This document shows, piece after piece, positions 18,927-57,747 of a stretch of 64,000 nucleotides of DNA; the first letter of the stretch is position 1, and each line of letters opens with the position of its first letter. This stretch comes from an uncultured Anaerolinea sp. Its GTDB lineage: Bacteria; Chloroflexota; Anaerolineae; Anaerolineales; Villigracilaceae. The notes under the pieces were generated by a model that did no database searches, had not been told where the DNA came from, and worked only from the letters and a program-made list of their open reading frames with translations. The translations under genes and the position numbers were made by a program. The stretch spans positions 245-64,244 of the forward strand of contig CAZIYY010000001.1 of the NCBI GenBank assembly GCA_964543585.1. Reading direction: 5' to 3'.

Positions 18927-18982
18927 AGCGAGATATTGCACAGTAACAATTAAACCGAGCAATCCTTGAGACCTATTTTGAA

Positions 18983-19036
18983 CCACGGAGACACCGAGAA
19001 AACCATATAAAACTCCGTGACTCGGTGTCTCCGTGG
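18983..19036. repeat. REP-C hairpin (perfect 16-bp arms CCACGGAGACACCGAG / CTCGGTGTCTCCGTGG)
   Basis: The inverted repeat is seen directly. It lies 3' of msrQ and may also act as a terminator. Confidence 0.8.
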
Positions 19037-19111
19037 TAAAAGCTTTGATGGTCTATACGAGGATTATTTGCTAGATTAATTTGGAAAGATTCAAAATCTC
19101 GATCTGCTTTT

Positions 19112-25499: not shown

Positions 25500-25640
25500 C
25501 GCGCAGAGCGGGGCTGCATGCTTTTTATGCGGCGTAGACGAAGCGCAGCTTTTATGAAAACGTGCGCTTCGTCTGCGCCCTCGGTTTCGATACGGCGGAA
25601 GAACACCGCCTACTCAACCAGCGGGGCTCCGCTCAGCGCG
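25500..25640. repeat. Composite nested-hairpin repeat containing a REP-A unit
   Basis: Outer arms are CGCGCAGAGCGG / CCGCTCAGCGCG. Inner perfect arms are AGACGAAGCGCA (25536) / TGCGCTTCGTCT (25563). A REP-A unit GGTTTCGATAC...CTACTCAACC lies at 25583-25619. Confidence 0.7.
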
Positions 25641-25643
25641 AGG

Positions 25644-26570
25644 TTATTTCCCTATCACAGCACGCCAAACGGCGTTTAATGCTTCAAGTCCCGTCATGCG
25701 ATGGCGAAGCGCGGCTTCATCATTAAGATAAATTGCGCCCTGCAAGGGGCGGTCATTGCGTGTGTACAGTCCGCGATTGGGGAGGTCGGATAACGCCGCC
25801 CAAAAATTCCAGAGCGGAAGATCATATTCAACGGCGAGCAGAGCCATGTCGCGGTTGATGCGGTCATCCAGTTCGCGGTTATCGGCTTTGGTGGCAAGGA
25901 TCGGGACCACGCCAGCGTCCATTAACTGTGTAATGATCTTGCGCAGGTATTCCGTATTGCGCGACTCAAAGTGCGTGCCGACCTGGATGATGACGAATGA
26001 TGGGCGATGCGTGCGGAGTTCACATTGAACTGGCGTCTCTGCAAAAATACAGCCATACTCGCCGCGATGCCATTGAGTCCACAACAACGCTCCAGGCGTA
26101 GTGCCATCCTGTGATGTGGAATTTTCGCGATTGAACGAACCCTTGAAATAAGTCACGGTCTCGCGCAGTTCAGGCTCAAAGCTATCAACCAATTCCTTAT
26201 CGGTTTCAAACACACCGAAAAATTCATGGGGCCTGGTCTGGCAATCGCCGAAGATCGAAAAGGCGTGCGGGTCATTCCCCAATTTCAGTCCTCTTTCATA
26301 GACCTTTTGCAGACTGGAGTCTATGAACTCTGGTATTACGTGCCAACTTTTCCATTCAGTAGGGTCGGGTTCTGGATGCCTGGGCGTTGAGGTGAAAGTG
26401 GGAGTAGCAGGCGAAATTTTTTTTGGTGTGTGCGTTGCAGTTGGCAACGGCGTGATAACAGGTAATTGGTAATTGGAGATTGGGGACTGAGTCGGCGCGG
26501 GTGTGGGTTTCGCTCCGCAGGCAATGATGAGCATGCAAATCATTAGGGAAAAAATCAATATACGATTCAT
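25644..26570 (-). CDS. Secreted lipoprotein, SGNH-like family with a GDC motif (paralogue of 34351..35304)
   Basis: ATG at 26570 and lipobox LIIACGA. Blocks shared with the paralogue: YERGL.LGNDP..FSI.GDCQ, GSF.R, CEL, VPI.ATKADN, PLWNFWAA. Confidence 0.6.
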   Translation of the reverse strand: MNRILIFSLMICMLIIACGAKPTPAPTQSPISNYQLPVITPLPTATHTPKKISPATPTFTSTPRHPEPDPTEWKSWHVIPEFIDSSLQKVYERGLKLGNDPHAFSIFGDCQTRPHEFFGVFETDKELVDSFEPELRETVTYFKGSFNRENSTSQDGTTPGALLWTQWHRGEYGCIFAETPVQCELRTHRPSFVIIQVGTHFESRNTEYLRKIITQLMDAGVVPILATKADNRELDDRINRDMALLAVEYDLPLWNFWAALSDLPNRGLYTRNDRPLQGAIYLNDEAALRHRMTGLEALNAVWRAVIGK

Positions 26571-26577
26571 GGTGCTA

Positions 26578-26650
26578 TGTAGGGCGGGGTGACTATGTTG
26601 GGCTGGGAGACCCTTCGACACCTTCGGCAGGACAACGCCTAGCCCCTACG
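26578..26650. repeat. Degenerate REP-D-like element (TGTAGGGCGGGG ... GCCCCTACG)
   Basis: The arms resemble the GTAGGGGCG / CGCCCCTAC family. It is intergenic between two convergently terminating minus-strand genes. Confidence 0.45.
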
Positions 26651-27101
26651 CACCTCTACCGTTTTCCCATTCGCGCGCGAAACGCAGGATGCGATTGCGG
26701 ATATAAAACACATGCGGATCGGCAAATGACCTGCGCTCCTTGATCAACTGCATCGCGTCGTACGGATCCTGTCCCTGCGCGACCAGGATACACGCGCCCA
26801 TCGCCACCCCGCGATGGACTCCGCCCGCGCAATGAGCGTAAACCTTGCCGCCGTCGCGGATCGTTGCGAGCGCGGCACGCGCGCCGCGCTGCAAGGCTTT
26901 CATGGGAATGGGAAAGAAGGGACCGTCAATCGTTCTCAACGACAAAAAGTGGAGAGGTTGAACGTGTGGATCTGGTTTAGGGTGATGAGTAAGCCGCATG
27001 TTGATCACCAGCCTCACACCCAATTCTCGCAGACGGTCGTAATCGCCTACCGAGGGCGTGGTGCCGATGAACAGATCGTCAGTGATCTTTGAAAAATCCA
27101 T
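26646..27101 (-). CDS. Dual-specificity / tyrosine protein phosphatase
   Basis: Active-site loop HCAGGVHRG (HCx5R). The N-terminus DLFIGT is typical of the DSP fold. ATG at 27101, with an upstream GTG at 27131 possible. Confidence 0.8.
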   Translation of the reverse strand: MDFSKITDDLFIGTTPSVGDYDRLRELGVRLVINMRLTHHPKPDPHVQPLHFLSLRTIDGPFFPIPMKALQRGARAALATIRDGGKVYAHCAGGVHRGVAMGACILVAQGQDPYDAMQLIKERRSFADPHVFYIRNRILRFAREWENGRGA

Positions 27102-27214
27102 GCGCGGAATCTTATCACAGGGAAAACGCACTGGAATTTGATTCTGTAAATATCACCACCATAATAACCCATCCACGTTAGGGGAGTTGACGGGTATACT
27201 TAAGCCACTGAAAT

Positions 27215-27871
27215 ATGACCATACACAGCATCTCCCAAATCGGCGGCGTTCTTCGCAATGCTGTCACCTTCAATTTCAAAAACCCTCCTGATGTTTTGAG
27301 AAGGGCTGAGTCTCTTGTCGCTCAAACGGAGGGATTTTTCAATCTGCTTGAATCTCGCAACATTGATTTTGTTTTGGTAAACGGCATCGCCCTGCTGACA
27401 TATGTTGAAGGGCGCAATACACAGGATATTGACCTCATCATGGCATTGCCGTCACTGGCAAAATTTCCTGAAATTAAGATCGAAAGCCAGGATATGTATT
27501 TCGCAAGGGGAAAATTCGGCGAACTGCAAATTGACATCCTGTTGACAAAAAACCCCTTGTTCGCAACTGTGGAAAAGAATTACACGACGACCAAGCAATT
27601 CATGGATCGTTCCATCCGCTGCGCAACTGTGGAGGGATTAATCTTATTGAAGTTATTCGCTCTGCCATCACTGTATCGTCAGGGAAGTTTTGAGCGCGTG
27701 GGGATTTATGAAAACGACATTGCCACGCTCATGTATGCATTCAAGCCAAAGATGGAAACTCTTTTTGCAGAACTCGACAAACATCTAAATGAAGATGACA
27801 TGGCTGAGGCTCGCAAAATCGTTGCGGACGTTGAGACTCGGATTCAAAGATTCAGGAAGGCGAAGGGATAG
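27215..27871 (+). CDS. Pol-beta-superfamily nucleotidyltransferase-like protein (minimal NTase fold)
   Basis: VNGIALLTYVEGRNTQDIDLI fits hG-x13-DhD. A third acidic motif is ELQIDILL. A helical C-terminal half follows. Confidence 0.55.
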   Translation: MTIHSISQIGGVLRNAVTFNFKNPPDVLRRAESLVAQTEGFFNLLESRNIDFVLVNGIALLTYVEGRNTQDIDLIMALPSLAKFPEIKIESQDMYFARGKFGELQIDILLTKNPLFATVEKNYTTTKQFMDRSIRCATVEGLILLKLFALPSLYRQGSFERVGIYENDIATLMYAFKPKMETLFAELDKHLNEDDMAEARKIVADVETRIQRFRKAKG

Positions 27872-27945
27872 TTACACGTGTCTTGCGACTCAAACGGGGG
27901 ATTTTGTGCTAAAGTTAAAGACAACATATCCATCAGGAAAAGAGC

Positions 27946-28830
27946 ATGATTACCAATCTAACCGAATATCAACTGGAAGTAGCTAATTGGTTAGCACAAC
28001 AATATGAAAATGGGCTGCTACATGAAACATTCTCTGTTCAATGGGTTTCGAAAGAGAGGGAGAAAATAGCCAAGATTAACGATTTTAAAGGGAAGCAGAT
28101 TGAGATAACCTTTGCTGCTTTAGAAATACTTGAGCAGGAACAGCTATTGTTGACAGTAAGTAAAGAAATATATGACCCGCCCAAACCATCCAGTGCTCGT
28201 GGAGCATATACTCCAGTCTATGTGTTCCCTGTTAAGAAGCGAGAAACTGGCAGAACATATACTCTTCGAAACGACATCTTCCGTGCCAGAGATTTATGCT
28301 TGAAGCGCCAGTTAATAAAAGATGCTGAAAAAATACTTGGGTTTATGATTGCTCGCCCAACTGGGATGCAGTTTGCAACACGATCAGAACTAATGTCTGC
28401 ATTGCAAATGGGCGACGAGAGATACGAGAAAGTTTGTCAATTCTTGGAGGATTTTGAACTTATTGGTCATAGACCAAGTGTAGGAATGTTATGGGGAGAT
28501 ATTCGACCAACCAAAAGGGGTCGGCAAGTAGTGCATGAAAAGTCGCTAGAGAATTTGGTTCTCACACAATCACCTGTTGTGAATTACAACTTGGGTGACC
28601 AGATAAGTGTAACAAACACAGGAAAAAATGTTTCTATCGCTGCTGGACGTCAAGCCAGTTCAACTCAGGGATTAACTGCGGCAGAGGTTGAGGAATTGTT
28701 TGAAGCGATATTGCAAAAACTGGAACAACGAACAGACCTTTCAAATGCTAAGAAGCAAGAAATAAAAGAAACTGTCGAGCTTATCCAAAATGAAACTCAA
28801 AAGGAACAGCAGCCGACGAAAAAGCTTTGA
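27946..28830 (+). CDS. Hypothetical protein, no recognisable family (possible winged-helix-like core, polar coiled tail)
   Basis: 294-aa ORF preceded by AGGAAAAGAGC-ATG. It is visibly AT-richer than its neighbours. The tail reads AEVEELFEAILQKLEQRTDLSNAKKQEIKETVELIQNETQKEQ. Confidence 0.55.
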   Translation: MITNLTEYQLEVANWLAQQYENGLLHETFSVQWVSKEREKIAKINDFKGKQIEITFAALEILEQEQLLLTVSKEIYDPPKPSSARGAYTPVYVFPVKKRETGRTYTLRNDIFRARDLCLKRQLIKDAEKILGFMIARPTGMQFATRSELMSALQMGDERYEKVCQFLEDFELIGHRPSVGMLWGDIRPTKRGRQVVHEKSLENLVLTQSPVVNYNLGDQISVTNTGKNVSIAAGRQASSTQGLTAAEVEELFEAILQKLEQRTDLSNAKKQEIKETVELIQNETQKEQQPTKKL

Positions 28831-28996
28831 GACATTACTTTCGAGCACTTTCTAGAATGGCTCCAGATATACTAGATGTTGTAATTACAACCGCCGCGAG
28901 TCCTGCTTTAGGCATCACGATGATAATTAAGAAAGTAGCTGAAAAAGCAAAAGCTGACGCTCAGGATTGAAATGTAAGACACAAGGGCAGGTTGGT

Positions 28997-31873
28997 ATGG
29001 CAGAAAACGCAATTGTCAAAATATTGACGGCACTGCTCAAACACCAGGTAAAGAAAGTTGTCGGGGACGAAACACTTGGCATCATCGGGCAGGAAATCGC
29101 CGCGCTGGGCGGCGATAAAGTTGACGACCAGATCAAGTCATGGCTTGGCGATCAAACCAACGCGGACCAACTCGAAAAAGCCGCGCAATCTGCTCAAACG
29201 TGCTTTCGCGAAAAAGTGGCGGACAACGAAATTCAACAATGGATGGTTTCGCTCCCGCTTGGCAATTTACCAAAAGTAGTTGAGACACTCGAAGAACTAC
29301 CAACATCCCCTGACGAATCAAAACTTGAAAACGCCCTACGCGAATCAATTGCACTGAATTGGAAGAGACTTTCTCCTGAACAAGTGGACAACGCCGTCAA
29401 TTCGTTTTTGACTTGTTTGAGAAGCGCATTGCTTCCTATTGAAAAACAAACCTTGATGGTCATCGGTCGTTCTGTCTTGCGGACAGAAGACAAAGTGAAT
29501 TTGCTCATCCACTGGTTCGAGCAATACATCATCACGGGCAAGCCTGCCGAAGTCAAACAACTGAATCCTGAACCTGTTGAAACCTGGAATCTCAAACATC
29601 CCTACCCCATGCCGCCGAATTTTACGGGTCGCGTAGAAGAACGCAAAATGCTCGAGGACTGGCTGAACAAAGACAATGAAAATCATTTATTCATCCTTCG
29701 GGCATTGGGTGGATTTGGAAAATCCGCTTTGTCATGGCATTGGCTGACCCACGATGTTGACTCGAAACAATGGACAAAAGTACTCTGGTGGTCTTTCTAC
29801 GAAGGCGACGCCAGCTTCGAGCGCTTCATCGAAGAAACTCTCAAGTATCTTAAACTCGAAGTCCCACAAGGACAGCGCCCACAAGTGGACGAATTGCTCA
29901 AAGCCATGCAAGGACAAAAAATCCTGCTCATCATGGATGGCTTCGAGCGTGCCCTGCGCGCCTACAGTAGTATGAACGCCGCGTATCAAGGGGATGAAGA
30001 ACCAAAACTTGAAGATAACCAACTTGACTGTGTCAATATCAACGCCGAAATATTTTTGAAAAGTGTTTGTGTTCTGCCAGGAATCAAGGGCAAGGTACTG
30101 ATGACCACACGATTAACCCCGCGCGCCGTATACGTAGGGGCGAGTCATGACTCGCCCCTACAAGGTTGCCATGAAGAAGAACTGACCGCCATGCAAAAAG
30201 CGGATGCGGTCGAGTTCTTCCACAAACAAAAAATCAAAGGCATACGCGCCGAAATTGAGTCTGCCTGCGCGCCGTATGGCTATCACCCTCTGAGTCTGCG
30301 CTTGCTGGCTGGACGTATCTTGAAGGACTTTGAAAACCCAGCCGACATCGTCGTTGCTCAAAAACTCAAAATTGATGGCGACATCATCCAACAGAAACAT
30401 CATGTCCTTGAAGTTTCCTACAACAGCCTGCCGCCTCATGAACAGAAGTTACTCAGCACGATTGCCTGTTTCCGTTCGCCTGTTGAACTCAAGACGCTTG
30501 AATCAATCGCAGAAAACGTAGGGGCGGAGCATGCTCCGCCCCTACTACAAGATAACCTCCGCGATTTGATTGAACGCGGCTTGCTTCATTTCGATGAGAA
30601 GAACAAGAAATTCGATCTCCACCCGATTGTAAGGCGTTATGCCTATGAGCGCCTGACAGCACCCGACCGCACTGCTGCGCACACCCGCCTGCGCGACTAC
30701 TTCGCCGCGGTAGCAACACCCGCCAAACCTCAGACCCTCGATGACCTCGCGCCCGTCATCGAACTGTACCATCACACTATACAAGCTGGTGAATTTGACG
30801 AAGCCTATAAACTCTATAAATATCGTCTCAACACATCCTTATATTTTCAATTTGGTGCCTACCAATATATCATTGAAGTTTTGCGAGCCTTGTTTCCCAA
30901 TGGTGAAGAAAGACCTCCGCGTCTGAAAGACAGAGGAGATCAAGTATGGACATTGAATGAACTTGGTGCCAATTATGGTGTGATTGGGCAACCTTATCGG
31001 TCCAATTCACTGCGCCAACAACTGATTTCATACTTTGAGGGAGTCCTTGGAGGGCAAAACGACTTCATTACACTACTTGGTAACCTTGCTGGGCAACAAA
31101 TTGTCGTTGGTGCATTACGCCCTGCTGATTCAAACCTTCAGCGCGCTCTTGCGATATGCAAAGAAATAGAAAGCAATGGGGCAAACGGTCATCATTTTTT
31201 AGGGCAAACATTAACCATTCGAGGATTATGGAAAAAGGCAGAGAAGGAGTTATCCCTTGCGTACGATTTGTTTAAAGAGGAAGAACATGAACATGCTCAA
31301 GCAGCTGTCTGTATTGATAAGGCCTTCTGTTATCTTTTGATGTTGCGCAAAAGTCAAAACTCCAACAAGCTAAAAATCAAAATAATCAAGAACTTAGAAA
31401 ATGCAGTAGGGCTTTTGGAAGAATGGGCCAGAAAAGCATATCCTGTCCCAAGAGAATTTATGTATGCAGATTGGATAAGGGGTGCCGTCTATCGTCTTGA
31501 TGGACAACTCAATTTTGCTGAGAGCCGCGTGATCAAAGCACTAAGCTCCTGTCGCGAAATCTCCGCGTTGTCTGACGAAGCCAACATCCTCCTCGACCTC
31601 GCCCGCCTGCGCTACGACCAAACGAATTATGAAGAAGCCAAATCTCTCGCCGAAGAAGCACTCACCATCACCGAGCGTTGCGGCTACGTCCTGCAAGGCG
31701 CGGATGTGAATTTGTTCCTCGCCCAATACGCACTGGAGCAGGAGCAGGATAAAGTCAAAGCAAAGGAATATGCGGAGGAAGCCAAGAAACTCGCCACGTG
31801 CGACGGTCCGCCGTATTATTACAAGGTGGCGTATGAGGAGGCCGTTGAAATGTTGGAACGTTTGAAGGTTTGA
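28997..31873 (+). CDS. STAND NTPase of the NB-ARC type with C-terminal TPR array and an unassigned ~215-aa N-terminal helical domain
   Basis: FTGRVEE...L, Walker A GGFGKSAL, Walker B ILLIMDGFE, KVLMTTR, GYHPLSLRLLAG, and a winged-helix-like YNSLPPHEQKLLSTIACF. TPR-like repeats follow to the C-terminus. Confidence 0.85.
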   Translation: MAENAIVKILTALLKHQVKKVVGDETLGIIGQEIAALGGDKVDDQIKSWLGDQTNADQLEKAAQSAQTCFREKVADNEIQQWMVSLPLGNLPKVVETLEELPTSPDESKLENALRESIALNWKRLSPEQVDNAVNSFLTCLRSALLPIEKQTLMVIGRSVLRTEDKVNLLIHWFEQYIITGKPAEVKQLNPEPVETWNLKHPYPMPPNFTGRVEERKMLEDWLNKDNENHLFILRALGGFGKSALSWHWLTHDVDSKQWTKVLWWSFYEGDASFERFIEETLKYLKLEVPQGQRPQVDELLKAMQGQKILLIMDGFERALRAYSSMNAAYQGDEEPKLEDNQLDCVNINAEIFLKSVCVLPGIKGKVLMTTRLTPRAVYVGASHDSPLQGCHEEELTAMQKADAVEFFHKQKIKGIRAEIESACAPYGYHPLSLRLLAGRILKDFENPADIVVAQKLKIDGDIIQQKHHVLEVSYNSLPPHEQKLLSTIACFRSPVELKTLESIAENVGAEHAPPLLQDNLRDLIERGLLHFDEKNKKFDLHPIVRRYAYERLTAPDRTAAHTRLRDYFAAVATPAKPQTLDDLAPVIELYHHTIQAGEFDEAYKLYKYRLNTSLYFQFGAYQYIIEVLRALFPNGEERPPRLKDRGDQVWTLNELGANYGVIGQPYRSNSLRQQLISYFEGVLGGQNDFITLLGNLAGQQIVVGALRPADSNLQRALAICKEIESNGANGHHFLGQTLTIRGLWKKAEKELSLAYDLFKEEEHEHAQAAVCIDKAFCYLLMLRKSQNSNKLKIKIIKNLENAVGLLEEWARKAYPVPREFMYADWIRGAVYRLDGQLNFAESRVIKALSSCREISALSDEANILLDLARLRYDQTNYEEAKSLAEEALTITERCGYVLQGADVNLFLAQYALEQEQDKVKAKEYAEEAKKLATCDGPPYYYKVAYEEAVEMLERLKV
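30134..30161. repeat. Perfect 28-nt palindrome (REP-D type) in frame inside the STAND CDS
   Basis: GTAGGGGCGAGTCA|TGACTCGCCCCTAC, encoding VGASHDSPL. Confidence 0.9.
30518..30545. repeat. Perfect 28-nt palindrome (REP-D type) in frame inside the STAND CDS
   Basis: GTAGGGGCGGAGCA|TGCTCCGCCCCTAC, encoding VGAEHAPPL. Confidence 0.9.
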
Positions 31874-31890
31874 ACGTTTAGAGTGAAATC

Positions 31891-32067
31891 GTTGGTCGAG
31901 TAGCCCGAACGACAGTGAGGGCGTATCGAGACCAACAGGCACATACAGACAATTGATTACATGAAATCGAGTAGTGTGGTTTCGATACGACGGCGGAAGA
32001 ACACCGCCGTCTACTCAACCACCGTCTGAAACAATATTTATCTCGGTGCCCTCGTGTCTCCGTGGTT
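31891..32067. repeat. Repeat cluster: two REP-A units in opposite orientation plus a REP-C half-site
   Basis: 31891-31936 is GTTGGTCGAGTAGCCC...GGGCGTATCGAGACCAAC. 31976-32022 is GTGGTTTCGATACGACGGCGGAAGAACACCGCCGTCTACTCAACCAC. 32041-32067 is TCTCGGTG..GTGTCTCCGTGG. Confidence 0.8.
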
Positions 32068-32090
32068 AATTTCTGTGCTAGACTCTGCAC

Positions 32091-33713
32091 ATGGAAATCC
32101 TCACATCCTCCATCGACTCAACCTCCCCCGAATTCAAAACCAACTCCTCCCACCACCGCGCCCTCGCGTATGAACTCAAGGATCGCCTCGCGCGCGTCCG
32201 CGAAGGCGGCGGCGAAAAGTATCGCAAGCGACAGGAAGAACAGGGCAAACTGTTCGTCCGCGAACGCATCCAACGTCTGCTCGACCCGGGTTCGCCGTTC
32301 CTCGAACTATCCCCTCTCGCGGCGTATGATCTTTATGATGATGAAACTCCATCATCGGGCATTGTCACCGGCATCGGACGCGTCTCGGATCGCGAAGTGC
32401 TCATCGTCGCCAACGACGCCACCGTCAAAGGCGGATCGTATTTCCCGATGACGGTTAAGAAACATCTGCGCGCCCAGCAGATCGCCGAAGAGAATCATCT
32501 GCCCTGCCTGTATCTCGTCGATTCGGGCGGGGCGTTTTTGCCCCTGCAGGACGAAGTCTTTCCCGACGTCAATCATTTCGGTCGCATCTTCTACAATCAG
32601 GCGCGCATGTCTGCCAAAAAAATTCCGCAGATCGCGGCGGTGATGGGCAGTTGCACGGCGGGCGGCGCGTACGTCCCTGCGATGAGCGACGAAGCGGTCA
32701 TCGTCAAAGGCACGGGCACGATCTTCCTCGGCGGACCACCGCTCGTCAAAGCCGCGACGGGTGAAGATGTCACTGCAGAGGATCTCGGCGGTGCGGATGT
32801 CCACACACGACTCTCTGGTGTCGCCGATCATTTTGCGGAGGACGACGACCACGCCATTCAACTCTTACGGGACATCGTTGAAACTTTACAACCTGCCAAC
32901 TTTCAAACGGTTCTATCGAAGCTGGAAGTTGCTCCGCCCGAAGAACCTTTATTCCCCGCTGACGATTTATACGGCATCCTCCCGACAACTTTCCGCGCGA
33001 CCTATGATGTTCACGAGATCATCGCGCGATTAGTGGACGGCAGCAAGTTCCGCGAGTTCAAAGCGCGCTACGGCACGACGTTGGTAACGGGGTTCGCGCG
33101 CATTCACGGATACCCTGTCGGCATCATCGCCAACAACGGAGTCCTGTTCAGCGAGTCCGCGCTCAAAGCGACTCACTTCATCGAATTGTGTAACCAGCGC
33201 GGCATTCCACTCATCTTCCTGCAAAACATCACCGGCTTCATGGTGGGGCGTGAAGCGGAAACAGGCGGCATCGCCAAGGATGGCGCGAAGATGGTCCATG
33301 CCGTGGCAACGACCCGCGTCCCCAAACTGACCGTGGTCATCGGCGGCTCATTCGGCGCAGGCAACTACGCCATGTCCGGTCGCGCCTACGGCTCGCGCTT
33401 CCTCTGGATGTGGCCCAACGCCCGCATCTCCGTCATGGGCGGAGAACAAGCCGCGAATGTGCTCTTAACTATCAAACAGGATCAACTTCAAAGAGAAAAG
33501 AAACAGCTTCTCACGAAGGAAGAAGCGGACGAGTTTAAACGTCCCATTTTGGAGAAATACGAAAACGAAGGCAACCCCTATCATTCCACTGCTCGTCTCT
33601 GGGATGATGGAGTGATCGATCCAGTAGATACAAGACAAGTTCTCGGTCTTGCATTATCGGTTGTTTTGAATTCGCCTGTGGAAGAAAATAATTTCGGTGT
33701 GTTTAGGATGTGA
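32091..33713 (+). CDS. Acyl-CoA carboxylase carboxyltransferase (beta) subunit, methylcrotonyl-CoA carboxylase-like
   Basis: 540 aa. The N-terminal [34 protein letters not shown] and the tandem carboxyltransferase halves are typical of MccB/PccB-type proteins. Confidence 0.85.
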
Positions 33714-34044: not shown

Positions 34045-34249
34045 TGTCACACCTGCACTTGCGCCAGGTGCAAGTGTTGCGAGCGAAGGTCGCTGGTCGA
34101 GTAGCCCTGAGCGTTCTTTGCGAAGGGCGTATCGAAACCAAGGCGGCGTGGCAATCCCTCTTATCATGTCTCTCTGAGGGAGCGTTCGCCGCGACCGAAG
34201 AGTCTCTTCCACTCGAAAGTAGAGACCCTTCGCTATCGCTCAGGGTGAC
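34045..34249. repeat. Repeat cluster: short alternative hairpin + REP-A unit + REP-B unit
   Basis: 34050-34078 is CACCTGCACTTGCGCCAGGTGCAAGTG. 34093-34140 is a REP-A unit. 34168-34249 is a REP-B unit nearly identical in its core to 5202-5281. Confidence 0.8.
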
Positions 34250-34350: not shown

Positions 34351-35304
34351 TTACGGCGCTTCCGATAGTCCTCTTCTAAGGACGTCCAGCGTTTGCAGAG
34401 CAGTGAGATTGCGCCAGGGCCAGGCGCTTTTCATCCGGACGGGGTCATCGAAGAAATTGCGCGCAAAGGTCAGGTGGAAACCGTCGGCGCTGAGTCCGTG
34501 ATCAGACAAAGGTTGGACAGCCGCCCAGAAATTCCATAACGGAATATCGTATTCATAGGCAATCTGCCCAATCGTCGCGTTGATGCTGTAATCGCCTTCA
34601 AGATTATCGGCTTTGGTCGCGATGATCGGCACTGCGCCGGTCTCGATGATGCGGTCCAGCACACGGCGCATGTATTTGTCGTATTCTTCGGCAGGTTTTT
34701 CAGACCACCACGTCTCCATGCTGACAAATACAACAGAAGGATTCCAGACGCGCAACTCGCAATCGAGCGGCGATTCATTTGGGTTGCACGATTTTGGATT
34801 TGAACGCAAAGGTGAGATCACGGCCGCAGCATTGAAGCCGCCCTTCACCGCGAGACTGACGCGCGAGAACGAGCCCTGGTAGTAATCAATCGTCGATTGA
34901 AGATAAGCATATTCACCAAGACTGAAATCGCCAGGCTTATCGAATGTGGAAAGAAAATAAGACGAGACGTTCTGGCAATCGCCAATAATGGAGAAGTGCG
35001 TTGGGTCGTTGCCCAATGCGAGTCCCCGCTCATAAAGTTCGCGCATGGAGTCGCTTACATCTGCTGGCACGGCGGGCATTTGCATCCACGCGTCTTTTGC
35101 GAGAGGCGGCTTGGGCGTTCGCGAAGGAGTGGGAGCAGGAACGGTCGCAGTGGAGACAACTGTTTGGGATTCAGGATCAGTGGTCAGCGCAGCCCGACGC
35201 GAGTCTTCAGTCTGAATAGATGCAGTCGGCATGGTCCCCTGTCGTGTCGAGCAGGCGGAGAGCACAGTCGTTATCAAAAAGAGAAAAAAGATTTTGTGTT
35301 TCAT
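34351..35304 (-). CDS. Secreted lipoprotein, SGNH-like family with GDC motif and DGFH motif
   Basis: ATG at 35304 (MKHKIFFLFLITTVLSACS lipobox); the longer ORF-track start overlaps the upstream gene. Motifs FSIIGDCQN, ATKADN and ADGFHLT are present. It is a paralogue of 25644..26570. Confidence 0.6.
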   Translation of the reverse strand: MKHKIFFLFLITTVLSACSTRQGTMPTASIQTEDSRRAALTTDPESQTVVSTATVPAPTPSRTPKPPLAKDAWMQMPAVPADVSDSMRELYERGLALGNDPTHFSIIGDCQNVSSYFLSTFDKPGDFSLGEYAYLQSTIDYYQGSFSRVSLAVKGGFNAAAVISPLRSNPKSCNPNESPLDCELRVWNPSVVFVSMETWWSEKPAEEYDKYMRRVLDRIIETGAVPIIATKADNLEGDYSINATIGQIAYEYDIPLWNFWAAVQPLSDHGLSADGFHLTFARNFFDDPVRMKSAWPWRNLTALQTLDVLRRGLSEAP

Positions 35305-35308
35305 GGTC

Positions 35309-36427
35309 CTATTTATTGTCACAGATGGATTGGATTGCCTGGGCAATTTTATCAGCGAGCAGGGCTTCGCCCGCAGGCGTAAGATGGACGCCACTGTTCG
35401 TAAATTCCTCAATCGGGGCAATGTCCCACAGGTCGAGATAATTCCAGTTGCGCGCCGCCGCGCGTTCAGCCAGCATTTGGCGATACTTGTCATAAGCCCA
35501 GCGCGGATAGAAAAAATTATAGCGGATGTCGCTGTTGAGTCCGTTGCTGATGAGGATCGGTTCGTTGACGAGGATTGTCGGCGCGGGCGCGGCGGACATG
35601 CCCGCATCGAGTATATCGAATGCAAGCGCGTTTCGCAGTGAAGTCAGTTTATGAAATTCATCGCTGGCTTCGAGATCGATCTGCGCGCGCTCATAGGTTT
35701 CAGGATAGAACTGATCAATGCCAGTGGACGCCCACAGCGCGCCGTAGATTTGCAGGCGCAGGATATCTGCAACTTCCCGCCTCCGACCCACGAAGGTCTG
35801 GTTCCATTTCGACAGGTTGACCAACTCTGGATCATTTGGGTTTGCAAGTAATTGGTAATTGGTAATTAGTTCCCGGACGCGTGCGGCGTTATTCGCGACA
35901 AGAGGCGAGCCAAATTGTTTGTCCCTCGGAAGGGATTCAAGTGTTGTGAGCCAGATGACCATATCGGGCTGATATTGCAACGCCTGATCGAGAATCATCA
36001 ATTCCTGCATGAGTGAAATATATGGGTAACCTAAATTGTATGCGCGCACGATTTTTCCACATGCGGGAATCGCCATTGAATTTAATTGACCCGCAAGAGT
36101 TTGTTCGGGCGTGAGCAATATTCCCCATATGGAAGAGTCGCCAATGAGGAAAACGCGATATTCAGCGGGGGTCTTTGGACTTCCGACCAGTACGTGCGAA
36201 GCAAACATGGCGTCCAGATTAAACAGACTCAAGTTATATGCCTGGGGATGTTCACCGAACGGAAGTCTTTCGCGCCCGGGGAAGACACTGTTGTATAAGG
36301 AAAGTTTTCCAAATGGAATGTCTTGTGTGAATATGAACGCAAAGTTGAACAAAGCAAAAAGGATTATCGCTTTGAGTAGAACTCCAAAGAGGCGGATGCG
36401 GGGTTGGTTTTCCATTGTTGTATTCAT
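35309..36427 (-). CDS. SGNH/GDSL-type hydrolase/acyltransferase-like protein with an N-terminal membrane anchor
   Basis: ATG at 36427. After the TM helix come block I VFLIGDSSIWG and a C-terminal GVHLTPAGEALLA (block V-like). The gene lies immediately downstream of the MBOAT gene. Confidence 0.65.
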   Translation of the reverse strand: MNTTMENQPRIRLFGVLLKAIILFALFNFAFIFTQDIPFGKLSLYNSVFPGRERLPFGEHPQAYNLSLFNLDAMFASHVLVGSPKTPAEYRVFLIGDSSIWGILLTPEQTLAGQLNSMAIPACGKIVRAYNLGYPYISLMQELMILDQALQYQPDMVIWLTTLESLPRDKQFGSPLVANNAARVRELITNYQLLANPNDPELVNLSKWNQTFVGRRREVADILRLQIYGALWASTGIDQFYPETYERAQIDLEASDEFHKLTSLRNALAFDILDAGMSAAPAPTILVNEPILISNGLNSDIRYNFFYPRWAYDKYRQMLAERAAARNWNYLDLWDIAPIEEFTNSGVHLTPAGEALLADKIAQAIQSICDNK

Positions 36428-38640: not shown

Positions 38641-38763
38641 GTTGGTTGAGTAGGGCGATGGGTTGTCTCGCCTGTATCGAAACCAACATATTACATCAAT
38701 ACTTTTGGAATGTGGTGGTTTCGATACACCCTTCGCAACAAACGCTCGGGGCTACTCAACCAC
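38641..38763. repeat. Pair of REP-A units in inverted orientation
   Basis: 38641-38686 is GTTGGTTGAGTAGGGCG...TGTATCGAAACCAAC. 38715-38763 is GTGGTTTCGATACACCC...GGGGCTACTCAACCAC. Confidence 0.8.
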
Positions 38764-38770
38764 CAAAGTA

Positions 38771-45164: not shown

Positions 45165-45247
45165 GGTCTCGATACGCCCCAAAAAGCATGGGGCTACTCG
45201 ACCACCGCCAATCTCCAATCTCTAATTACCAATCACCAATTACCACT
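45165..45247. repeat. REP-A unit followed by a CCAATCTCC/AATTACC short-period repeat tract
   Basis: 45165-45206 is GGTCTCGATACGCCCC...GGGGCTACTCGACCACC. 45207-45247 is CCAATCTCCAATCTCTAATTACCAATCACCAATTACCAC. Confidence 0.8.
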
Positions 45248-57581: not shown

Positions 57582-57669
57582 ATTTTTCTCCTTTGGCTAA
57601 ATAGATTGGTCTGACGAGATGCATACTATAAAACACCTTGCGGATGATAAAGAGACGCCCGCTTCGCGG

Positions 57670-57747
57670 GTGGTTGAGTAGGACGACAGTTCGTACACTT
57701 GCACCAGCACGTGATTTGCTTGGCAAATCATGCAGGTGTCGAAACCC
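57670..57747. repeat. Long REP-A variant with an internal hairpin
   Basis: GTGGTTGAGTAGGACG...CACTTGCACCAGCACGTGATTTGCTTGGCAAATCATGCAGGTG-TCGAAACCC. Confidence 0.6.

Follow-up and report, generated by a model that had tools for sequence, protein, structure and literature searches.

In a 64,000-nucleotide (nt) stretch of a genome from the Anaerolineales (phylum Chloroflexota), the window to which all positions given here refer, three genes follow one another on the same strand and are transcribed divergently from a neighboring protein phosphatase gene. Gene 1 probably encodes an AbiEii-like nucleotidyltransferase, gene 2 is a truncated open reading frame (ORF), and gene 3 encodes a predicted STAND NTPase with a C-terminal sensor of tetratricopeptide repeats (TPRs). 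An earlier note on this DNA had proposed that the three constitute a single defense module, in which gene 1, gene 2 or both supply an effector in trans to gene 3. The reading that we favor, and hold to be probable, is that of a variable slot, whose resident is gene 3, an NLR-like STAND protein, with gene 2 as a facultative partner that is broken in this genome and gene 1 as an unrelated, mobile-looking gene.

The Chloroflexota are one of the clades highlighted for NTP-dependent conflict systems (Kaur, Burroughs, Iyer, Aravind 2020, PMC7159879; 2021, PMC8195603), and effector displacement has been put forward as a signature by which conflict systems can be recognized (PMC7159879). Defense-associated STAND clades follow a tripartite logic in which the N-terminal modules are exchanged (bioRxiv 10.64898/2026.01.04.697583).

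Gene 3 and its N-terminal domain

The motifs that had been quoted for genes 1 and 3 are all present, and the description of gene 3 as a STAND NTPase with a TPR sensor is borne out. Its nucleotide-binding oligomerization domain (NOD) contains the Walker A motif GGFGKSAL (residues 238-245, 29708-29731), the Walker B motif ILLIMDGFE (residues 309-317, 29921-29947), the sensor MTTR (residues 369-372, 30101-30112), and a GxP-type motif, GYHPLSLRLLAG (residues 428-439, 30278-30313), and the cores of these motifs are invariant or nearly invariant in an alignment of 41 gene 3 relatives. Pfam recognizes TPR_12 with E=4.9e-9; the NB-ARC match lies below threshold (E=0.0026, 17.5 bits vs a cut-off of 23.5), several close homologs carry a precomputed NB-ARC (PF00931) annotation, and a winged helix is indicated by a weak match to WHD_ROQ1 (E=0.17). 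Compared with the PDB, a profile of the gene 3 family matches the NOD and arm region of the STAND protein PH0952 (6mfv, E=5e-11), the TPR region of AfsR (E ~3e-10), and the TPRs of LGN/Pins, kinesin light chain, and many other proteins; among NCBIfam models, the TPR regions of AfsR and HaaT are weakly similar. As read from its sequence, gene 3 is an intact, self-contained NLR-like STAND NTPase with a TPR sensor, starting at the ATG given in Table 1 or possibly at a TTG at 28967. A search returned 896 homologs, of which those with source names belong to the Anaerolineales or to the Chloroflexota more broadly; its sister proteins match only the generic 'TPR' model of PADLOC.

The earlier note saw no effector motif in the first ~215 residues. 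That part holds, residues 1-215 having no match in Pfam, NCBIfam, PHROGs, the PDB or Foldseek and containing no known effector domain; the position is not empty, being occupied by a conserved helical domain, hereafter the N-domain. When these residues were searched with phmmer against 1.84 billion cluster representatives, at least 250 proteins were found at E<=1e-3; in the matches listed, which are up to 1766 amino acids (aa) long, the domain occupies the N-terminus or a position close to it, mostly residues ~5-170. Eight of these proteins were scanned with Pfam and contain NB-ARC with TPRs, NACHT, nSTAND3, nSTAND_NTPase5 or AAA_16, one of them also APAF1_C; in none of the eight did a Pfam model cover the N-domain itself, and 30 divergent copies of the domain, compared with Pfam one by one, gave scattered and unrelated sub-threshold matches only. 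The Pfam models for EAD, TCAD and bDLD domains do not match it, and Pfam scans of the gene 3 N-terminus found no helix-turn-helix (HTH), BTAD or other DNA-binding domain. The conserved signatures of the N-domain are ALLKHQxK..GDE, ADxCF, LP..LP, YLxCLRxALLP, and IGRxVLRTE. AlphaFold2 (AF2) predicts an all-alpha fold with a mean pLDDT of 66, rising to ~80 over residues 55-150, for which Foldseek found no neighbor (best E=1.6 in the PDB and E=0.32 in BFVD). A weak match to Death_3 (E ~0.1) and a superficial 'MAD...' likeness to the MADA/CC motifs of plants were considered and not used as evidence.

What else can stand at the N-terminus of this chassis was counted in the best 120 of the 896 gene 3 homologs. 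The ~175-aa helical domain of gene 3 is present in 41, a TIR domain in ~35, SEFIR in three, Trypsin_2 in one, EAD7 in one, and a hydrophobic, transmembrane-like segment in ~8, and more than 20 have an N-terminus of just ~60 aa with the motif [VI]GGN[VI]xGN..VVGNNNVINYY. A family-specific linker, W-x-L-x-HPYPMPPNFTGR (the HPYPMPPNF junction), is found in 78 of the 79 top homologs without the helical domain and in 18 of the 40 with it, and marks the junction at which N-terminal modules are exchanged. In P0012, P0013, and P0018 the Gly/Asn-rich motif GGNV..NNNVxNYY stands between a helical N-domain and the HPYPMPPNF junction; since it is internal in these proteins, it is a separable element and not merely an alternative N-terminus.

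In exchanging N-terminal modules while conserving the NOD-TPR chassis, the gene 3 family shows a hallmark of conflict systems. Its distribution and conservation mark the N-domain as a conserved domain in its own right rather than an empty effector position. It stands where sister proteins have TIR, SEFIR or protease domains, and more than one STAND clade has recruited it; both observations suggest a putative effector or adaptor role in a conflict or programmed-death pathway of a filamentous bacterium. Among orthologs the N-domain is 61-86% identical vs 46-61% for the NOD-TPR part, a contrast that would fit a constrained output coupled to a fast-evolving sensor.

One further feature of gene 3 is a perfect palindrome, GTAGGGGCGGAGCATGCTCCGCCCCTAC (30518-30545), which coincides with a 6-aa in-frame insertion in the winged-helix region (ENVGAEHAPPLLQDN in gene 3 vs ENKDSLDTD in its homologs). 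It has no second copy in the window and may have arisen by the in-frame insertion of a small palindromic element.

Gene 2, its frameshift, and its association with STAND genes

Gene 2 had been said to match nothing recognizable, a statement overturned by its homologs, of which 19 were found, most of them 335-346 aa long with a C-terminal Pfam domain, TCAD2 ('ternary complex associated domain 2', E=7.5e-14 in the homolog P0122). The gene 2 ORF comprises an N-terminal alpha/beta domain, a winged-helix-like region, an invariant segment rich in Gly and Asn (28576-28647), and the beginning of TCAD2, and breaks off at residue 294; the ~53 C-terminal aa that it lacks are encoded in the +1 frame (Table 1), which reads AADEKALRHYFRALSRMAPDILDVVITTAASPALGITMIIKKVAEKAKADAQD up to a stop codon. 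Within it the tail, as ...EKALRHYFRALSRMAPDILDVV...AQD / AADEKALRHYFRALSRMAPDILDVV...AQD before the stop, is collinear with the homologs, and one base is therefore missing in CAAAAGGAACA near 28800-28808, where the sequence is a short A/G run. TCAD2 is complete in the window only after this frameshift is repaired, and the intact gene would terminate ~26 nt upstream of the gene 3 ATG. The layout given in the earlier note thus stands as to three same-strand ORFs divergent from the phosphatase gene, and has to be amended as to the 167-nt gap between genes 2 and 3 (28831-28996), which encodes the tail of gene 2. Logan, a separate collection of read-run assemblies, also records the same 294-aa truncated protein, which mildly favors a real mutation over an assembly artifact.

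In an AF2 model of the intact homolog P0122 (mean pLDDT 68.6), residues 1-80 and 100-210 are mostly confident, and confidence is low in the invariant Gly/Asn-rich segment and at the extreme C-terminus. Foldseek returned local matches only, of which those with high probability are mostly to winged-helix domains (the N-terminus of Rio2, the MarR family), with probabilities of up to 0.99 and E>0.1, and no enzymatic effector fold was recognized in this model. Homologs of gene 2 match component B of the PADLOC candidate system PDC-M14 (PDC-M14B) over the Gly/Asn-rich segment and the first half of TCAD2 (E=4e-7 to 1e-4). The likeness to PDC-M14 is limited to ~90 of ~265 profile positions and no PDC-M14A partner was detected; a literature search for PDC-M14 found no paper.

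A STAND gene lies directly downstream of gene 2 in the window and in loci L002, L003/L004, L010, and L012, with gaps of ~26-36 nt where measured. In L001 the next gene is a 54-aa C-terminal remnant of a STAND gene, and in L005 gene 2 is itself in fragments with nothing downstream, so that five of the seven informative gene 2 loci have a STAND gene directly next to it and one more has a remnant. The partner is in most cases the short-motif form of the STAND protein; the form with the helical domain occurs beside gene 2 only in the window and in L012. As gene 2 usually precedes a STAND gene and the STAND gene mostly occurs without gene 2, it is gene 2 that depends on a STAND neighbor, and not vice versa. 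The best description of gene 2 is that of a facultative partner that appears to be decaying in this genome.

This same adjacency is the main support for an alternative that is possible and clearly less likely than the one we favor, namely that genes 2 and 3 are a genuine two-gene system, with the winged-helix/TCAD2 protein as an effector, adaptor or regulator that the activated STAND protein would recruit or release, and with the copy in the window recently inactivated. TCAD2 was defined from NTPase-centered conflict systems (Pfam name; PMC7159879), and the PDC-M14B match (E ~4e-7 at best) also fits this view; the term TCAD is itself absent from the text and supplement of Kaur et al. 2020 (PMC7159879). 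The proposal has to contend with the six loci at which the STAND gene of the slot stands without gene 2, with the frameshift in the window and the fragments in L005, and with the failure to find either an enzymatic effector fold in gene 2 or a link between gene 2 and either type of STAND N-terminus. For the N-domain, hhalign of the two families gave a probability of 0.2%, that is, no common domain, and Pfam found no TCAD2 in gene 3; a homotypic adaptor on the EAD principle was rejected on this result.

For the short N-terminus, the comparison is with the amyloid pairs of Bell/BASS and NLR proteins (Dyrka et al. 2020, bioRxiv 10.1101/2020.01.06.895854), which our loci resemble in that a small gene accompanies an NB-ARC/TPR gene and the lineage is filamentous, that the sister STAND proteins have a short N-terminal motif rich in Gly, Asn, and Val, and that gene 2 has an invariant Gly/Asn-rich segment. 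They differ in that the gene 2 motif is internal and not C-terminal, no Bell domain is present, and gene 3 of the window lacks the short motif. A BASS-like pairing of gene 2 with the short-form STAND proteins was rejected, as a hidden Markov model (HMM) of the motif scored -6.0 to -1.8 bits on gene 2 proteins, not above shuffled sequences, which reached 3.9.

In two of the gene 2 loci (L002:3906-4232 and L003:11065-11391), a conserved 108-aa protein is encoded by a gene that overlaps the short-form STAND gene at its stop codon. Each of these genes precedes a homologous ORF, which in L003 is CcbP-like (Calci_bind_CcbP, E=5e-17). The 108-aa gene, absent from the window, might represent one more accessory module. 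Its candidacy as a Bell-like effector was rejected, because inspection by eye showed no motif rich in Gly, Asn, and Val and neither Pfam nor PADLOC matched it.

Gene 1 and the slot

Gene 1 has the motifs of a nucleotidyltransferase, hG[GS] (VNGIALL, 27377-27397), RxTxDxD (RNTQDIDLI, 27413-27439), and hDh (LQIDILL, 27524-27544), and residues G57, D71, D73, and D107 are invariant in 27 homologs. To this extent the signature that had been assigned to it is confirmed, with the reservation that profile matches are only weak: AbiEii (E=0.099, 13 bits vs a cut-off of 22.5) and NTP_transf_5 (E=0.14) in Pfam, and the 'nucleotidyltransferase-like protein' 5uvd in the PDB (E=0.26). A pairwise comparison with a bona fide AbiEii protein from L011 gave E=0.004, and this alignment, like those with 5uvd and NTP_transf_5, spans the GG...RxTxDxD motif. 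Gene 1 is probably an AbiEii-like nucleotidyltransferase; a match to Phage_CII (E=4e-4, just under threshold) was judged spurious, the PDB alignment to CII having E=0.5. Its GG...RxTxDxD...D arrangement, which aligns with AbiEii on that motif, resembles the type IV toxin-antitoxin system AbiE; it differs in falling below the Pfam threshold, in an unusually high conservation (80-91%) across contexts, and in having no AbiEi-like antitoxin gene upstream in the window, where no antitoxin-like partner fits because only 83 nt separate it from the divergent phosphatase gene.

Homologs of gene 1 number 4787, and the top 120 are 217-242 aa long (most exactly 218) and 78-100% identical. They occur in several settings: between genes for an APH-family kinase and an AIPR protein (L019), between an overlapping 66-aa ORF without a Pfam match and an SGL-like gene in a LytR/SGL-type context (L020/21), and between the phosphatase and carboxyltransferase genes (L022/23). 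In L019, L020/21, and L022 gene 1 is 83-85% identical vs ~67% for the adjacent phosphatase. We take gene 1 to be most plausibly a mobile-looking nucleotidyltransferase gene, unrelated to the others, that seems to land in the slot and elsewhere. At L019:5991-9465 the gene 1 homolog has a 4-nt overlap with the stop of the kinase gene, and the AIPR (abortive-infection-type) gene comes next, a defense-like context unrelated to any STAND gene.

A second, different nucleotidyltransferase stands beside gene 2 in L011, a 2.7-kb contig that may represent the same slot as the window. There, the gene 2 homolog is immediately preceded, on the opposite strand, by a bona fide AbiEii gene (L011:561-1485, minus strand; Pfam E=3.2e-11), which an 85-aa ORF overlaps on its upstream side, and a fragment of a GHMP-kinase gene adjoins them.

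The features of the locus and its boundaries are collected in Table 1. Gene 2 is, as had been observed, richer in A+T than its surroundings; the G+C contents of genes 1, 2, and 3 are 0.45, 0.41, and 0.48, vs 0.55-0.57 in the flanking genes. A PHROGs search gave no match for any of the three proteins. Where their source is named, the best homologs come from metagenome-assembled genomes of the Anaerolineales or other Chloroflexota.

Table 1. The three genes, their parts, and the boundaries of the slot, with positions in the 64,000-nt window
Feature	Position	Strand	Remarks
DSP-type protein phosphatase	26646..27131	-	Left boundary of the slot; Pfam Tc-R-P, PTP-SAK, DSPc weak (E ~1e-5)
Gene 1, probable AbiEii-like minimal nucleotidyltransferase, 218 aa	27215..27871	+	Nucleotidyltransferase motifs, weak profile matches
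Gene 2, truncated ORF, 294 aa	27946..28830	+	Homologs with C-terminal TCAD2
Out-of-frame tail of gene 2, remainder of TCAD2	28809..28970	+	+1 frame, collinear with homologs
Gene 3, predicted STAND NTPase (NB-ARC-like NOD and TPR sensor), 958 aa from ATG	28997..31873	+	
Gene 3, N-terminal ~175-aa all-helical domain (predicted)	28997..29521	+	Signature ALLKHQxK..GDE at 29030-29056
Gene 3, family-specific linker W-x-L-x-HPYPMPPNFTGR	29585..29632	+	From N-terminal module to NOD
Gene 3, NOD motif span	29708..30313	+	Walker A, Walker B, MTTR, GxP-type GYHPLSLRLLAG
G+C-rich palindrome within gene 3	30518..30545	.	Perfect, 28 nt
Gene 3, C-terminal TPR sensor	30794..31873	+	~Residues 600-958; TPR_12, TPR_MalT (Pfam)
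Spacer with REP-like short inverted repeats	31874..32090	.	217 nt
Acyl-CoA carboxylase carboxyltransferase subunit	32091..33713	+	Right boundary of the slot; Pfam Carboxyl_trans E=2.8e-155

Full-length gene 3 orthologs (49-66% identity) occur in the same slot without genes 1 and 2 at five loci: L006, L013, L014 (CP129483), L015/16 (CP129482), and L017/18. At these loci the genes run in the order MutS2, an 80-aa gene, a minus-strand gene of 233 or 316 aa, in some cases threonine-pathway genes and the phosphatase gene, next the STAND gene, and farther on the carboxyltransferase gene. Orthologs of the phosphatase, at 65-69% identity, adjoin the STAND gene in L003, L006, L013-L016, and L024, and gene 1 in L022; the carboxyltransferase gene follows the slot in L003, L013-L017, L022, and L024. 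Between these two boundaries the contents vary. A STAND gene with the short N-terminal motif stands alone in L024, gene 1 stands alone in L022, gene 2 is found with a short-form STAND gene, the 108-aa gene, and the CcbP-like gene in L003/L008, and L005 contains cytochrome b and Rieske genes and gene 2 fragments, with no STAND gene.

As gene 3 orthologs lacking both neighbors occupy the same slot, the trio is not a unit. The comparison of adjacency across genomes that the earlier note had called for goes against its proposal: the order gene 1, gene 2, STAND gene recurs outside the window only in L010, a 2.1-kb contig, and gene 1 is otherwise alone or elsewhere. Of the findings that the note had named beforehand as telling against itself, two apply, since the full-length gene 3 orthologs of these loci lack genes 1 and 2 and share one conserved syntenic slot.

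That very synteny is what could be urged for a regulatory protein. On this view gene 3 would be a STAND protein with a housekeeping or regulatory task specific to its lineage, comparable to MalT, AfsR or GutR, and not an immune or conflict protein; it would respond to a metabolite or protein and govern a cellular process, perhaps acting with the divergent phosphatase. We consider this unlikely. The synteny is stable down to 49% identity, beside MutS2, threonine-pathway, phosphatase, and acyl-CoA carboxylase genes; similarity to the TPR and NOD regions of AfsR and MalT exists, weakly, in NCBIfam and the PDB; and PADLOC does not match gene 3. Set against these are the N-terminus, which has no HTH, BTAD or other DNA-binding domain, the TIR, SEFIR, and trypsin N-termini of close relatives, a sensor that diverges faster than the N-domain, the slots without a STAND gene in L022 and L005, and the low G+C content relative to the flanks.

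The operon-like three-gene defense module, in which an effector-less STAND protein would receive its effector in trans from the nucleotidyltransferase, gene 2 or both, is very improbable: the shared strand and close spacing, the recurrence of the order in L010, and the different AbiEii nucleotidyltransferase upstream of gene 2 on the opposite strand in L011 speak for it, and are outweighed by gene 3 orthologs that normally lack both neighbors, by a gene 1 that is found beside APH and AIPR genes, beside LytR/SGL-type genes or alone in the slot and is far commoner (4787 matches) than gene 2 (19), by the conserved N-domain that gene 3 has of its own, and by a gene 2 that is truncated in the window and has no domain in common with the gene 3 N-terminus.

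Of the surroundings, the spacer downstream of gene 3 had been described as a dense REP cluster. REP-like repeats are plausible there, and the spacer is no dense array: it has two short inverted repeats, one of them at 31922-31934 / 31977-31989. Words of 13-19 nt from the spacer recur at 25592-25610, 34094-34141, 45165-45204, 38643-38764, 18981-19037, and 57669-57681, mostly outside long ORFs where checked and some inverted, which suggests a family of dispersed REP-like repeats in this genome. Two paralogous genes on the minus strand, 25644-26621 (325 aa) and 34351-35625 (424 aa), lie on either side of the region and have in common the motifs GNDP..FS..GDCQ, ATKADN, and PLWNFWAA, with no Pfam match where tested; orthologs of the first (233-324 aa) belong to the conserved synteny.

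The probable resident STAND protein and its exchangeable parts

By analogy with known STAND proteins, gene 3 would sense a ligand, oligomerize, and deliver an output in a conflict. Its TPR array would bind a trigger, a protein or peptide that is probably derived from an invader; binding would relieve autoinhibition and permit nucleotide exchange on the intact P-loop NOD, and the exchange would drive oligomerization, clustering the ~175-aa helical N-domains as the output module. Our preferred guess for that output is a proximity-activated cell-death or adaptor domain. Because the frameshift removes most of TCAD2, gene 2 is probably non-functional here, and gene 3 may act alone, as in most of its relatives.

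Its closest parallels are the Avs-type and other NLR-like STAND proteins, with which gene 3 shares the tripartite layout of N-terminal module, P-loop NOD with winged helix, and C-terminal TPR-like sensor, and with which its family shares the exchange of N-terminal modules (TIR, protease, and others). Unlike them, it matches no Avs, bNACHT or other PADLOC model, its N-terminal module is an unannotated helical domain in which no effector is recognized, and it is syntenically fixed, with no obvious defense island. The resemblance to PH0952, AfsR, and MalT described above concerns the chassis, at low identity, and does not extend to a DNA-binding output domain. To the EAD/TCAD conflict systems the locus is linked by its Chloroflexota host, by EAD7, TIR, and trypsin domains in gene 3 relatives and TCAD2 in gene 2 homologs, and by effector displacement on a conserved NTPase core; it differs in that no homotypic adaptor domain was detected between genes 2 and 3 and that none of the vWA-MoxR, VMAP, iSTAND or GTPase core genes lies next to the trio or in the related loci examined.

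Several points weigh against the variable slot with a resident immune receptor. No PADLOC family matches gene 3 at E<=0.1, so that the PADLOC check suggested in the earlier note turns out positive for the gene 2 family, through the candidate PDC-M14B, and negative for gene 3. Stable synteny beside housekeeping genes is atypical for defense islands. The conflict role of the gene 3 family is predicted, as is any tie to phage defense or cell death, and the output role of the N-domain is argued from its position alone, because the model is of moderate confidence and without a structural neighbor. The gene 2 frameshift might instead stem from an error at the level of the reads, in a homopolymer run, and the order in L010 makes a loose association of genes 1 and 2 possible. 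Finally, the neighborhood sample is small, ~12 independent loci, several of them on short contigs, with four loci from the scan of genome contigs and three from that of metagenome contigs.

Beyond the resident STAND protein itself lies a more tentative proposal, to which we assign lower odds still than to the two-gene system. The N-domain might be an undescribed output module (for example for cell death, membrane targeting or an adaptor function) that NB-ARC-TPR, NACHT, and nSTAND3 clades have recruited repeatedly, and a single Anaerolineales locus might record both the in-situ swap of N-terminal modules, helical vs short GGNV, and the gain or loss of a TCAD2 partner. If true, this swap series would resemble the allelic NLR series known in plants and fungi.

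The STAND chassis and its evolutionary logic are already known, from the NLR-like STAND proteins of multicellular bacteria, from Avs-type systems, and from EAD/TCAD-coupled systems; what is not cataloged in the resources searched is the helical N-domain and the turnover in situ of N-terminal module and partner at an orthologous locus. If our reading holds, the three-gene system dissolves, and the window adds little on defense architecture as such. It also illustrates that a frameshifted gene can mimic an 'unknown protein' followed by a long intergenic gap. A widespread N-terminal domain of NLR-like proteins without annotation in Pfam, NCBIfam, PADLOC or the PDB would be a candidate new output or effector domain. 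A STAND protein that keeps one locus throughout an order of filamentous bacteria, with turnover of its N-terminal module, sensor, and TCAD2 partner, would make the Anaerolineales slot a clean natural series for the study of module exchange in NLR-like receptors.

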